Shown here piece by piece: positions 2,603-6,392 of a stretch of DNA of 64,000 nt. This DNA comes from an uncultured Coriobacteriaceae bacterium. GTDB lineage: Bacteria; Actinomycetota; Coriobacteriia; Coriobacteriales; UMGS124. Positions within the stretch are counted from its first letter, which is position 1; the number at the start of each line of letters is the position of its first letter. Where the stretch lies: the NCBI GenBank assembly GCA_900539345.1, contig UQBS01000007.1, positions 8,246-72,245 of the forward strand. The letters run 5' to 3'. Made by a program: the position numbers and the translations under genes. The notes under the pieces are model-generated. The model searched no databases, was not told where the DNA came from, and saw only the letters and a list, made by a program, of their open reading frames with translations.

Positions 2603-2731
2603 GCGAGGTCTCCTTCCAGGTGCTCAGACAATGTCCCCGCCCATGATACGTTGCCGACGCCCCAGGCCCACCGCGCATCCCCCACCCGTCACCTGTTCGA
2701 AACCAAGTACCACAGTGGCTCCGTATACAGG

Positions 2732-3013
2732 CTATATCCCAAGGAGGTCCGCATGCGTTCCAGTACGCGCGGCGGTGAGAATAAGGTTGTTGCCATCGAT
2801 TCGATAGATTAAGAGCCAATCAGGCTCGATATGGCATTCCCTATGTCCGCGATAGTTGCCAACAAGCTGATGGTCTCTCATTGCCTCCGGAAGAGCTTGG
2901 CCCGCGCAAAGGAGCCGCAGCGTTTCTTCAAGTTTGCTCATATTTCGGCCACGCTTCCTTGCGAGCTTATAGTCCTTCTTGAACTGAGCGGTGTACTCAA
3001 GCGCGTACACCAT
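2732..3013 (-). CDS. yafQ: Type II toxin, YafQ/RelE-family mRNA interferase
   Basis: A 93-aa ORF. YKLARKRGRNMSKL...HQLVGNYRGHRECHIEPDWLLIYRI...RTGTHADLLG is collinear with E. coli YafQ. It starts 3 nt after the antitoxin stop codon. Confidence 0.85.
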   Translation of the reverse strand: MVYALEYTAQFKKDYKLARKRGRNMSKLEETLRLLCAGQALPEAMRDHQLVGNYRGHRECHIEPDWLLIYRIDGNNLILTAARTGTHADLLGI

Positions 3014-3016
3014 AGC

Positions 3017-3313
3017 CTACTCCTCGTCCAGGGAAGCCATCATCGCCTCGACGCTGTCAAAAGGACCGGTAACGTTACGGCCCGTCACTGCATCGTCCAT
3101 TGCCGCAAGCGTCTCAGGCGAAAAGCCTTCAGGATTCGCTGAATCAAAGGGCAGGCCGCCTCTGCGATTGAACGCAGAAACAAACATGCGCAAGGCATTG
3201 GCCGGCGTCGTTCCAATGGCCGAACAGGTTTTGAGAAACTGCTCTTTCTCCGACTTCGTCACCTTAGTAGAAAGAGGCGCATTGACCAGTACTGCTGAGC
3301 CAGGCATTAGCAT
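3017..3313 (-). CDS. dinJ: Type II antitoxin, RelB/DinJ family
   Basis: A 98-aa ORF with an N-terminal ribbon-helix-helix-like segment (STKVTKSEKEQFLKTCSAIGTTPANALRMFVSAFNRRGGLPF), positioned immediately upstream of yafQ. Confidence 0.8.
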   Translation of the reverse strand: MLMPGSAVLVNAPLSTKVTKSEKEQFLKTCSAIGTTPANALRMFVSAFNRRGGLPFDSANPEGFSPETLAAMDDAVTGRNVTGPFDSVEAMMASLDEE

Positions 3314-3347
3314 CGCCGCCTAAAACGAACGGAAGTAATTTAGAATA

Positions 3348-3380
3348 TATGCTATTGTATCCTATTAGAAGCTAATAGCA
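3348..3380 (-). promoter_or_regulatory. Candidate operator and promoter of the dinJ-yafQ operon
   Basis: In the AT-rich stretch upstream of dinJ there are nested inverted repeats: CTATTAG (3362-3368) N3 CTAATAG (3372-3378), inside GCTATT...AATAGC. This is the typical position for antitoxin autoregulation. Confidence 0.4.
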
Positions 3381-3444
3381 ACTCTTTCCTTATAGACCAG
3401 TCAAGCCCACCAGTTTTGAAAACCTGGGATGCATCCAGTTCATG

Positions 3445-4575
3445 TCACCGACTTTTACGATGCTCGATTACGTACTCAGCAGCAGACTTCACATAAGAGG
3501 GATTGAACCACAACCAGATGTGCTCATCGAGGTAATCTTCTATGACCTTGTTGACCTCCTGTAGGCACTCAATCTTGTCGGAATCGAAGCAGAGCACCGG
3601 AAGAGGTCTGTTGGCGTGGACGTAGTTGCATCTAAAACCATACCCAATGCCCAACATGAGATATGTGAGCGGGGTGCAACGAGGGCGATTGCTGCTCGCT
3701 GTTTTACTGTCTTTGTTCTCCATTACTGAAACCCACGAGTCAATTACCCTGTTATCAAGAGGTTTCACCCCGTGCTGTCTGCAAGATGAACGAACAAACC
3801 GCGTAACGGCCTTGTTGTTGTCGTCCTTTGGCAAGAGCCAGAGGCACTTTTGTTCCTCCGGTACCTCTCTATCCAACCACATAGCCAGGCAGTCAATACA
3901 GTTGGATTCACCGTAAGGCTTGGAGGACTTGCCGAGTAGCAGCCAAACAGCATTGGCCAGGAATCCATAGATGCCGTTCAATGCCATCCAAAGATTGACG
4001 AACCGATCTGCGACATTCTCCTTGCTCTTGGCGAGAACAAGGGCCCATAGCGAGCTGAACAAACGCTCGTACGTAATCTCAGCCTCGGGCCCCAACTTGC
4101 ATTTACCCGCTTTGCTGCTATTGAGATACCAACGGACTCTATCAGGTTCGATACTTATTCCTCCAGAAGCAGCAGGCAGACGCATCGCGATGCAGTCGAG
4201 TCCACAAGGCTCGCTTTCTATAAGCATGCCTTGTGGACTCTGCCGCTGAATACAAACCCTCGCCCAATAATTCCCGTTAATCAATCGTCCATATCTAAAT
4301 GCATGAAGCGCCGACGCCTTCAGAATCCCATCGCGAATGAGAAGCCCGCGCAGCCCCAGGCGAGCCATCTCATCCGCTTCTTTCTGCTCCTCGCCAGCTG
4401 CAATGTTCGCGTCAAACGACAGGGAAGCATAGCCTTCGGAAAGCATGAGAGATATTCCGGTCATCCTACCAAATGCGTAAGGCTCATAGACATAGTCCCA
4501 ACCCGTCATCTGGAATGGTTGGACGTAAGCCTCAGCATCCCGGCAGATTTGAAATTCAACGCGACCTTTCGCCAT
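3445..4575 (-). CDS. Hypothetical protein with a C-terminal HEPN-like Rx4H motif (possible Abi/defence-type RNase; function unproven)
   Basis: A 376-aa ORF with an ATG start in the lower-GC islet. The C-terminal helical region carries FVNLWMALNGIY and GFRCNYVHANRP; the R and H codons lie at 3631-3633 and 3616-3618. It starts 33 nt downstream of the preceding gene. Confidence 0.6.
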   Translation of the reverse strand: MAKGRVEFQICRDAEAYVQPFQMTGWDYVYEPYAFGRMTGISLMLSEGYASLSFDANIAAGEEQKEADEMARLGLRGLLIRDGILKASALHAFRYGRLINGNYWARVCIQRQSPQGMLIESEPCGLDCIAMRLPAASGGISIEPDRVRWYLNSSKAGKCKLGPEAEITYERLFSSLWALVLAKSKENVADRFVNLWMALNGIYGFLANAVWLLLGKSSKPYGESNCIDCLAMWLDREVPEEQKCLWLLPKDDNNKAVTRFVRSSCRQHGVKPLDNRVIDSWVSVMENKDSKTASSNRPRCTPLTYLMLGIGYGFRCNYVHANRPLPVLCFDSDKIECLQEVNKVIEDYLDEHIWLWFNPSYVKSAAEYVIEHRKSR

Positions 4576-4608
4576 GATTGGATGGTCCGCGAATGCCGAG
4601 TCAAATCT

Positions 4609-5679
4609 TTACTTCACACTATCTGAAGACTCAGCTGAGGCAACCCATATAACAGGACGGACTCCCAGAATAGCGTCCGGCCACCACTCTCCGTCACCAG
4701 TATCCGTATTGTAGGCATCATAGAGGTGCACTACTCCCAACGTAAACCCCGCTTCATCCCCATGGATTGCCCACCACCAAGGTATATTCGCCCACTTTTC
4801 ATCATCTTTTACGCCATTTTCGCGAGCATATGAGGTCAGTTCAACTGGATAGAGCATGGGCCGATATGTATCAACATCTGAAAATGTAAGAAGCGAAACC
4901 GTATCCTTTAAGTCATAAGCAGGGCCTATAAACTTCTCGTCCTCTGCTCCTGAACCCAAGTTCTCTTCCAGTAGTTCAGACCTTTCCTCAGCCGTAAACG
5001 ATTCTTCAAGAAACACACCATTTAGCCAGGCACGAAGGGTTGATGTACACCATAGACTGAACGAATGCTCATCAAACGGTTTCCCGTCAATTACGTCCTT
5101 CGTTACCAGCAGCGTCCCTTCATCGGTCCTATCGAGAACAATCCACTCGAGAGGCTCGGCGCCGTTTGATTCGTTACCGTCCTGTTCGTAAGAGCCATAC
5201 TCAACAATGTCGCCAATCTGAGCGTTTCGGACTTTTTGGACAGGGTTGTCGTTAGCAATAGCAGTTCGGGCGGCAATAACGGCAACAACCGCAATGACAC
5301 AAATCACCAGCGCAACAATGACCATCCTGATGCGCTTGCGCTTTGCCCTATACAGCGAGACAGCGCTCTCCGTCAGCGTCTTCAATTCATTAGAATGCTC
5401 ATCATCGCTGAAACGAAGGGCGTTCTTATACGACTGATGGCCCGTATAGTCCAATGCAATCGTGCCAAGGCCTTCTTGGTTCTTGACATGAACCTCAGCC
5501 ATAAGCTGAGCCAGATATGCGTCAGCACACTCTGGGTCAATATCGAGGACGTCGGAACAACGGGCAAGAGCCTCTTGCCATTTGCCTTCTTCGAGAAGCA
5601 GGTCAATCCTTCGCAAAAGCGTATCGATGCGAGTCTTTGGGGTCGCTTCGTTTTCGGTCGTTGACATGGAGGTCCTCAT
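4609..5679 (-). CDS. TPR-like / single-TM / DUF6273-domain protein
   Basis: A 356-aa ORF. The N-terminal helical repeat (GKWQEALARCSDVLDIDPECADAYL) is followed by one TM helix (IRMVIVALVICVIAVVAVIAA). After that comes GDIVEYGSYEQ...PLEWIVLDR...LRAWLNGVFLEESFTAEE, characteristic of DUF6273. An alternative ATG lies at 5667. Confidence 0.72.
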   Translation of the reverse strand: MRTSMSTTENEATPKTRIDTLLRRIDLLLEEGKWQEALARCSDVLDIDPECADAYLAQLMAEVHVKNQEGLGTIALDYTGHQSYKNALRFSDDEHSNELKTLTESAVSLYRAKRKRIRMVIVALVICVIAVVAVIAARTAIANDNPVQKVRNAQIGDIVEYGSYEQDGNESNGAEPLEWIVLDRTDEGTLLVTKDVIDGKPFDEHSFSLWCTSTLRAWLNGVFLEESFTAEERSELLEENLGSGAEDEKFIGPAYDLKDTVSLLTFSDVDTYRPMLYPVELTSYARENGVKDDEKWANIPWWWAIHGDEAGFTLGVVHLYDAYNTDTGDGEWWPDAILGVRPVIWVASAESSDSVK

Positions 5680-5715
5680 CTCTCGGCATGGAGCCTAATC
5701 CCAAAATGCCGCTTC

Positions 5716-5742
5716 AGAGTACCCCCCCCCCTCGCTTGTCAA
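5716..5742 (-). promoter_or_regulatory. Candidate promoter with a G10 homopolymer spacer
   Basis: On the minus strand the sequence reads TTGACA (5742-5737), AGCGA, G10 (5731-5722) and TACTCT (5721-5716). The spacer is 15 nt. The site lies about 35-50 nt upstream of the 5679/5667 start codons. Confidence 0.4.
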
Positions 5743-5898
5743 CGGCTATTCGTGCTTCAGTCGCAAATAGCCCGTCAAGCATTCCAGCTTGGACTGCAAG
5801 GCATTCGCGCACGAAAGTCCACCCTCAAACGAGCAATAGGAAGCATCACACGATTGCATCTATCAGCGCATAGAGCTCTCGCAGGATTGTTCGATTAG

Positions 5899-6129
5899 TT
5901 AAGCGGCTTGCCTGGCAAGCGCGTCCACAAGTTCCTTCTCCGAGGACACAAACTCATACGGCTCATACTCGCCGTATGCGGAAGACCTGGTAATGGTTAC
6001 CAACTGCAAGTCATTTGAACAGAAGCACTCTTCAATGCGACGTTTCATTTCAACCAAGTCCTGCCCAGCGCGCGTCCGCATTGCCAGGCAACCTGTTCTA
6101 CTGAACCACATGACGACAAGGTGGCACAT
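5899..6129 (-). CDS. Small hypothetical protein (76 aa)
   Basis: The ATG at 6129 is preceded by GAGGAG with an 8-nt spacer. I recognise no family. It lies in the lower-GC islet. Confidence 0.45.
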   Translation of the reverse strand: MCHLVVMWFSRTGCLAMRTRAGQDLVEMKRRIEECFCSNDLQLVTITRSSAYGEYEPYEFVSSEKELVDALARQAA

Positions 6130-6232
6130 ATCCCAATCTCCTCTTAAAACCGACTTCCGAGCGAATTCCCCCTGACTCGTAGAACCCACGGAGCGCCTGT
6201 CCTATGGCACGGGCTCAACGCTTATCAAACGT

Positions 6233-6314
6233 GGGCCGAAGGGCTGTTCAGGCGCAGTTTTTCGGCGCGGGTTATGCGCCGAAACTGTTTGAGCACTGAA
6301 CAGCCCTTCGGCCC
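6233..6314 (+). repeat. Family-B long hairpin element, copy B2
   Basis: A perfect 19-bp inverted repeat, GGGCCGAAGGGCTGTTCAG / CTGAACAGCCCTTCGGCCC, encloses GCGCAGTTTTT-[CGGCGC gggttat GCGCCG]-AAACTGTTTGAGCA. The core is shared with copy B1. Confidence 0.8.
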
Positions 6315-6356
6315 TAGGTGCGCATGGCAATCAGAGGCCGCCTCAATCGCTTGCAC

Positions 6357-6392
6357 AAAAAAAGGGCCCGAGGATTGCTCCTCGGGCCCTTT
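6357..6392 (-). terminator. Rho-independent terminator of the TRAP operon
   Basis: GGGCCCGAGGA (6364-6374) pairs with TCCTCGGGCCC (6379-6389). On the minus strand the hairpin is followed by a T7 run. Confidence 0.75.

Follow-up and report, generated by a model that had tools for sequence, protein, structure and literature searches.

Repeat-mediated contingency loci are textbook features of pathogens such as Neisseria, Haemophilus, Campylobacter, and Treponema, and none of the literature that we searched describes such loci in Coriobacteriia. In Neisseria meningitidis porA and Treponema pallidum tp0126, a poly-G tract between the -35 and -10 elements sets the level of expression, with an optimum at a spacer of 17 nt (PMC7864442, PMC3639595). 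For porA, which encodes a surface-exposed protein, slippage within the G run shifts the spacer and with it expression (PMC3639595; PMC7864442). The poly-G of tp0126, which encodes an OmpW homologue, is 7–11 nt long, its length varies both within and between isolates, and transcription is best when the spacer is 17 nt (PMC7864442); the tracts of tpr genes likewise lie between the -35 and the -10. Among actinobacteria, the tract HPT_37 of Propionibacterium (Cutibacterium) acnes, upstream of PPA1943, also lies between the -10 and the -35, and its C5/C7 variation changes the length of the spacer and is associated with a 2-fold difference in expression (PMC4746626).

At the sequence level, the locus described here shares this arrangement. 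In the 64-kb stretch of DNA that we analyzed (the window), a run of ten G's separates a -35-like from a -10-like hexamer upstream of a gene for a predicted surface-exposed protein, as in porA and tp0126. Unlike porA, the host is one of the Gram-positive, high-GC gut Coriobacteriia, the downstream genes form a two-gene accessory module, the lengths observed are mostly below the optimum, and the locus is known from sequence alone. Whereas heterogeneity in T. pallidum was established by fragment analysis and its effect by reporters, our data consist of polymorphism between assemblies. The P. acnes tract also differs, since it is short, clade-fixed, and located before a housekeeping gene, whereas the tract in the window is a long, apparently hypermutable run before the genes of an accessory islet.

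We propose, with a probability that we put at roughly 60%, that the tract is a hypermutable promoter spacer of the porA/tp0126 type and serves as a slippage-driven expression switch for the two-gene module. The G10 would form most of the spacer of a sigma-70/sigma-A-type promoter (TTGACA...TACTCT), and this promoter would drive an operon encoding a TPR-TM-DUF6273 membrane protein and a 376-aa protein with an Rx4H motif. Slipped-strand mispairing at replication would add or remove G's, and the resulting changes in spacer length would alter transcription, such that expression of the operon would be heritable, stochastic, and reversible, with either ON/OFF or graded states. Switching within populations would probably be frequent. 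Most likely, the mechanism is one already known from loci of the porA and tp0126 kind, and what appears to be new is its occurrence in Coriobacteriia, before an unstudied gene pair. In an abundant but little-studied group of the human gut, the locus is a specific case on which stochastic control of gene expression can be tested.

A poly-G tract between promoter-like hexamers

The first-pass annotation of this DNA had placed G10 as the spacer of a TTGACA/TACTCT pair, and direct reading of the minus strand, GCCG-TTGACA-AGCGA-GGGGGGGGGG-TACTCT-GAAGCGG, agrees with it in both sequence and coordinates. The -35 hexamer is perfect (TTGACA, 5742–5737, minus strand) and the -10 hexamer is of the TAnnnT type (TACTCT, 5721–5716, minus strand), as the annotation held. 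Between them, the spacer (5722–5736, minus strand) consists of a fixed AGCGA (5736–5732) followed by G10 (5731–5722). Coordinates likewise bear out its length, which is 15 nt in the window, and the 33-nt gap between the two downstream genes. The whole arrangement is located 49 nt upstream of the ATG of the first of these genes (gene 1), which has GAGGA as its Shine-Dalgarno (SD) sequence. The tract falls in the 231-nt gap between gene 1 and a small gene encoding a 76-aa DUF6718 protein (5899–6129, minus strand; Pfam DUF6718, E 5e-25), which lies upstream of the promoter.

The tract is exceptional for its surroundings. As had been noted from the letters of the sequence, a 10-nt run is conspicuous in this homopolymer-poor DNA: it is the sole homopolymer longer than 7 nt in the 64 kb, and the next longest G/C run in the window is 6 nt. 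An analytic estimate from Markov chains trained on the window minus the tract gives an expectation of 0.17 (order 1), 0.03 (order 3), 0.014 (order 4), or ~0.0002 (order 5) G/C runs of ≥10 nt per 64 kb. By this measure, the genome avoids G/C homopolymers and the tract is a real outlier within it, exceeding the length at which a homopolymer can slip (~8 nt or more).

The hexamers are less unusual when taken singly. Perfect TTGACA occurs 16 times on the two strands of the window against 15 expected, which is the chance rate. TTGACA followed by TAnnnT at a distance of 13–19 nt occurs twice against 0.7 expected, and the tract site is the sole intergenic one. A default promoter scan, which admits only spacers of 16–18 nt and thus leaves the tract promoter with its 15 nt unreported, detected no further -35/-10 pair within the 231 nt between the DUF6718 gene and gene 1.

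On the plus strand, the tract appears as a C10 run in the coding frame of an antisense ORF (5517–5873), an arrangement that would allow translational phase variation. We rejected this reading, since each length of the tract puts the C-terminal half of the ORF in a different frame and the diverged allele does not keep the ORF intact.

At the RNA level, there is no gathering-threshold Rfam match to a known RNA family anywhere in the window, and the predicted fold of the 5′ UTR is no better than those of shuffled sequences (z = -0.2). We noticed that GTTGACA (5743–5737, minus strand) is the exact reverse complement of TGTCAAC (5666–5660, minus strand), which overlaps the start codon and codons 2–3 of gene 1, and that the G run is able to pair with CCUCC between the SD sequence and the AUG. 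In a transcript reading through from upstream, these two pairings would occlude translation initiation.

Tract length polymorphism on identical backgrounds

Comparison of the tract across strains, a check that the first-pass annotation had suggested and in which an invariant length would have spoken against the switch, revealed that its length varies. Through exact-protein look-ups, we collected 21 further distinct contigs carrying the locus (22 including the window) from gut metagenomes, among them Hadza, VALL22, MERR22, BRIT20, and TEEM22 assemblies, and from Logan contigs. Pure runs of G8 to G11 are present, as are the interrupted runs G6TG3, G9TG3, and G10TG3, and the spacers of the slippery-tract contigs range from 13 to 19 nt. 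The shortest, AGCGA-G8, gives a spacer of 13 nt in a single contig (L017). Five contigs have G9 and a spacer of 14 nt, four as AGCGA-G9 (L001, L002, L009, and L010) and one as AGTGA-G9 (L024). Spacers of 15 nt are formed by AGCGA-G10 in three contigs (the window, L005, and L016) and by AGCGA-G6TG3 in one (L006), and AGCGA-G11 gives 16 nt in two (L007 and L008). The longer spacers are 18 nt (AGCGT-G9TG3; two contigs, L013 and L015) and 19 nt (AGCGA-G10TG3; two contigs, L012 and L014). Exact-pattern scans of JGI metagenome contigs and IMG/VR, using the flanks of the tract with a variable gap, gave no match.

Among the 16 slippery-tract contigs, the tract is polymorphic on otherwise identical sequence. 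In an alignment of 16 closely related sequences (15 loci and the window), it is the sole indel-variable site from -120 to +2300, one 70-bp deletion aside. Backgrounds that differ in tract length with zero SNPs were compared over 1.2–2.4 kb: the G10 of the window and the G9 of L001/L002 are separated by no SNP over 2.4 kb, and the G11 of L007/L008 and the G9 of L009/L010 by none in gene 1 and the leader that precedes it. The pairs L012/L014 and L013/L015 are one SNP and one G apart. Since at least 3 or 4 length changes have occurred in a tract of 10–14 nt, compared with a handful of substitutions in ~6 kb, the mutation rate of the tract is 2–3 orders of magnitude higher per site.

Every length given here is a consensus call from a metagenome assembly of short reads, and some contigs have only 3–4x coverage (L009 and L010). 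Could the differences be sequencing or assembly errors at a difficult homopolymer whose true length is fixed? Most of them are ±1 nt, and error grows with tract length just as slippage does, such that the stability of an interrupted allele cannot discriminate between the two. However, pure tracts span 8–11 nt and the 5′ part of the interrupted tracts spans 6–10 nt, and differences of 2–4 nt are above consensus error. Moreover, calls agree in pairs that come from different assemblers or samples (L007/L008, G11; L012/L014, G10TG3; L013/L015, G9TG3; L009/L010, G9), although some pairs may be re-assemblies of one sample, in which case agreement within the pair reflects the reproducibility of the call. 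Well-covered contigs also differ from one another, with G9 in L001 (17.5x) and G10 in L005 (9x). We therefore regard a purely artefactual origin as highly improbable.

Assemblers break contigs at heterogeneous or poorly covered sites. L013 and L015, which come from different assemblies, share their first base, which lies 7 nt upstream of the tract, and both have, within positions 1–30 of the contig, an A-to-T change at the last fixed base of the spacer (CAAGCGT...). Their common starting point suggests read-level heterogeneity or a drop in coverage at the tract.

How would these lengths translate into expression? RNA polymerase tolerates a spacer of about 17 ± 1 nt. Under the proposed switch, the G10 of the window (15 nt) and G8/G9 (13–14 nt) would be low or OFF states, and the expressing states would be G11–G13, G9TG3 (18 nt), and a fixed 18-nt allele described below, with G11 (16 nt) partially active at the lower edge of the tolerated range. 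Most slippery-tract contigs (10–12 of 16) have spacers of 13–15 nt and none has one of 17 nt, and there is no G12 or G13 allele among the 22 contigs. If the switch model is right, most of the sampled populations would thus be low or OFF.

The same distribution can be read as erosion. It is possible that the tract is a real mutational hotspot and not an adaptive switch, in which an ancestral 18-nt spacer became pure G and one-way contraction is silencing a costly module that is being lost. The pure-G alleles all fall below canonical spacing (13–16 nt, none at 17–18 nt), most strains are without the islet, and the second gene of the module (gene 2) is broken in L007 by a 70-bp frameshifting deletion. 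In addition, dN/dS among the closest haplotypes is 0.3–0.5, above that between the deep alleles, although raised values are expected from segregating variants among near-identical sequences and very few substitutions are involved. Against one-way loss, change is bidirectional: a single haplotype includes both a longer and a shorter tract (G11 and G9), and related haplotypes carry G6TG3 and G10TG3. Long pure tracts also persist in several diverged haplotypes, L024 included. On balance, we consider erosion of a dying module unlikely.

Diverged alleles and a conserved leader

Two alleles at the same chromosomal site, one represented by L018–L023 and the other by L024, have a gene 1 that is only 66% identical in amino acids. 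Synonymous divergence between these alleles and the window is high (dS 0.8–2.6 across both genes, 1–1.8 for gene 1), and dN/dS between alleles is 0.1–0.2, with both genes under purifying selection. These values imply that both genes are functional and that the alleles separated long ago; under such selection, there is something at the locus to regulate.

The -35 hexamer is invariant in 19 of the 19 contigs that reach its position, the 66%-identity alleles included, and the -10 hexamer is invariant in all alleles. The L018–L023 allele keeps both hexamers exactly and separates them by an A-interrupted spacer of 18 nt, AGTGAGAAGGGGGGAGGG (interrupted GAAG6AG3), which is identical in 6/6 contigs. 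The locus thus provides a natural allelic series on identical backgrounds together with a natural fixed 18-nt control allele.

Alignment of the alleles delimits a conserved leader of 115 nt (5668–5782, minus strand), which comprises an upstream block, the promoter, the 5′ UTR, and the SD sequence GAGGA (5677–5673) and forms the left edge of the shared module. The leader is 87–90% identical (10–13% diverged) between alleles whose gene 1 is 74–77% identical in nucleotides. Its two longest invariant blocks are CGTTGACAAG, which holds the -35 hexamer, and GGGTACTCTGAA, the longest, which holds the -10 hexamer. All indels in the leader are inside the spacer. At -116 the homology breaks off in each of four upstream contexts; since these four sequences, which are unrelated, abut the leader at this point, the leader marks a recombination boundary of the module.

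Although invariance of the hexamers is by itself weakly significant (P about 0.07), the hexamers are unchanged at dS > 1, the indels of the leader are confined to the spacer, and the non-slippery allele has the canonical 18 nt. Functional -35 and -10 elements with a working distance of ~17–18 nt would be expected to leave such a pattern at TTGACA and TACTCT, which supports the promoter reading of the first-pass annotation. We infer from these comparisons that the hexamers probably constitute an active promoter.

An alternative is that the main transcription comes from elsewhere, either from a -10-only promoter or by read-through from the DUF6718 gene; the tract would then be part of the DNA upstream or of a 5′ leader RNA, and its length would have little effect or would act at the RNA level. 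Many actinobacterial promoters lack a -35 consensus. A second TAnnnT, TAGGCT, lies downstream of TACTCT at 5697–5692 (minus strand) and is TAAGCT or TAAGTT in other alleles, such that TAnnnT is kept in all alleles while its middle positions vary. There is also no convincing terminator between the DUF6718 gene and the tract. However, the alleles that are without DUF6718 have a strong terminator ~250 nt upstream of the promoter, after the TRAP gene. With respect to an RNA-level role, the predicted fold of the 151-nt read-through RNA does pair the -35 segment with the start-codon region, but this fold is no better than those of shuffled sequences (z = -1.6). Moreover, it would be difficult to account for a perfect TTGACA that is kept across dS > 1, with a distance to TACTCT of exactly 18 nt in the non-slippery allele, if it had no -35 function. 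Transcription mainly from another start thus seems to us quite unlikely, and we favor the TTGACA/TACTCT promoter.

The two-gene module and its islet

Gene 1 (4609–5667, minus strand) encodes a single-pass membrane protein of 352 aa with a TPR-like N terminus, a TM helix at residues 110–140, and a C-terminal DUF6273 domain. It begins at the ATG at 5667, just downstream of the GAGGA, and public gene calls also give 352 aa, not 356. The DUF6273 assignment made in the first-pass annotation was correct: the product matches Pfam DUF6273 (PF19789) at residues 188–347 with 34.5 bits against a cut-off of 23.5. Fold similarity places it in the same family, since the AF2 model has pLDDT >90 in the DUF6273 domain and the folds most similar to it are those of 9qa6, the T. 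ramosa IgA peptidase, and of DUF6273 proteins from phages. The match to TPR_19 scores 21.7 bits, under its cut-off of 25. A KRKR cluster lies on the N-terminal side of the TM segment, which, with the TPR-like part N-terminal and DUF6273 C-terminal to the helix, indicates that the DUF6273 domain is extracellular.

In gut phages, DUF6273, which has been described as a C-type-lectin-like fold, functions as a receptor-binding domain diversified by DGRs (PMC10743442; bioRxiv 10.1101/2024.10.15.618418). The IgA protease of Thomasclavelia ramosa likewise has this domain at its N terminus (PMC12402451). DGR-type diversification of the gene 1 domain is unsupported, as the islet is without a reverse transcriptase, divergence is spread along the gene, and dN/dS is 0.1–0.2. 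We found no close relative of gene 1 in species-representative genomes, where the only match was a Lachnospiraceae protein at 46%.

Gene 2 (3445–4575, minus strand) begins 33 nt downstream of gene 1, presumably in the same operon, and encodes a cytoplasmic protein of 376 aa without a TM segment. It belongs to an uncharacterized family that comprises 202 or more clusters (50% identity; representatives at E ≤ 1e-3), in which W196, N200, Y203, Y312, R315, C316, and H320 are invariant. R315 and H320 form an Rx4H motif, in the context YxFRCNxxHANKP, that is invariant in 48 family members and conforms to the HEPN Rx4-6H pattern. Neither the gene 2 product nor its relatives have a match in Pfam, NCBIfam, or PADLOC, a profile search against PDB sequences found nothing, and a Foldseek search of PDB with the AF2 model (pLDDT 82) gave no match below E = 0.2. 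The HEPN-like label that gene 2 received in the first-pass annotation therefore stands for the invariant motif but gained no fold or HMM support from these databases, and we use it as a motif-level statement. Between alleles, the dN/dS of gene 2 is about 0.16.

Gene 2 is mosaic. Between haplotypes with just 8 nt of difference in gene 1, gene 2 differs by ~130 nt (L005, L006, and L012–L016), and in L005 the divergent block is limited to codons 86–165, where amino acid identity is 0.80 compared with 0.98–0.99 elsewhere. This mosaicism points to recombination between deep alleles within one gene. In L007 (4093–5153, equivalent to window ~3370–4575), the 70-bp deletion splits gene 2 into ORFs of 61 and 246 aa, and the pure tract of this same contig is among the longest (G11, 16-nt spacer). 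The combination of a broken gene 2 and a long tract may hint that expression of the module is costly.

Among nine distant members of the gene 2 family from metagenomes, a DUF6273 protein is the neighbor in 3/3 informative loci, which argues that the pairing of the two genes is not accidental. In two of these three loci the partner is a protein of ~850 aa with the architecture TPR-TIR_2-TPR-TM-DUF6273 (L027, 1027–3585; L032, 2269–4929), which shows that a cytoplasmic TIR domain can be part of the membrane partner. Both of these relatives of the module are in low-GC hosts. No homopolymers are present upstream of the distant relatives, and the tract is therefore lineage-specific.

What might the module do? 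Stochastic control is common for costly defense genes. The locus resembles phase-variable defense and restriction systems, and TIR or HEPN anti-phage systems such as Thoeris (ThsB), in that the relatives of gene 1 contain TIR_2, gene 2 contains Rx4H, and the module is accessory, lies beside a toxin-antitoxin pair, and is proposed to be under stochastic control. Unlike Thoeris-type systems, gene 1 of the window is without a TIR domain and the window proteins have no match to a catalogued defense system in PADLOC-DB v2; the TIR-bearing relatives have only marginal ThsB-like matches (E about 1e-3). In the viral contigs searched, we found no relative of either protein that would indicate a viral origin.

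From an extracellular lectin-like domain, a cytoplasmic TPR part with or without TIR, and an Rx4H partner, all in an accessory islet beside a toxin-antitoxin pair, we infer that the module may be a surface-sensing conflict or defense system. A more specific proposal, which we make tentatively and regard as doubtful, is that the switch governs an undescribed two-component transmembrane conflict or defense module, in which an extracellular DUF6273 sensor on a TPR scaffold (with TIR in relatives) would act through a cytoplasmic Rx4H effector. If this were true, a gut member of the Coriobacteriia would possess a surface-sensing system for immunity or phage interaction that is phase-variable, and the class would have its first described contingency locus. 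With a lectin-like membrane protein and an Rx4H protein (and TIR in some relatives) under a type of control typical of surface and defense functions, the pair is a reasonable functional candidate.

The module lies in an islet of ~3.6 kb (2723–6358) with a GC content of ~51–55%, compared with 63%, inserted after the terminator of a TRAP permease gene and before IDH. In ten contigs from this species, with junctions placed by alignment, IDH follows the TRAP permease gene and its terminator at a distance of 198 nt, without an islet in the gap; the islet is accessory and strain-specific. Its host had been assumed to be actinobacterial, and the flanking IDH, which is 85–87% identical to Slackia and Adlercreutzia proteins, fits this assumption and places the host in Coriobacteriia (uncultured, human gut).

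At the right end of the islet is a type II toxin-antitoxin pair (2732–3313, minus strand), identified by family HMM matches of two adjacent small genes. The RelB antitoxin (3017–3313) scores 30.4 bits in Pfam against a cut-off of 22.4. The YafQ/ParE-type toxin (2732–3013), whose 93-aa product has precomputed YafQ_toxin and ParE_toxin matches, is separated from the antitoxin gene by 3 nt. The pair has a promoter-like site of its own, TTGCTA-16-TACAAT (3381–3354), 41 nt upstream of relB. Across strains, the antitoxin occurs in variants of 96, 98, and 106 aa. The DUF6718 gene is also a variable part of the islet and is absent in L006, L012, and L018.

A perfect 19-bp inverted repeat, GGGCCGAAGGGCTGTTCAG / CTGAACAGCCCTTCGGCCC (6233–6251 / 6296–6314), lies within the islet close to its left end, following the TRAP terminator (6361–6392); its arms are separated by 44 nt, with a smaller nested hairpin. 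This repeat could be a relic of integration or recombination, or a small structured element.
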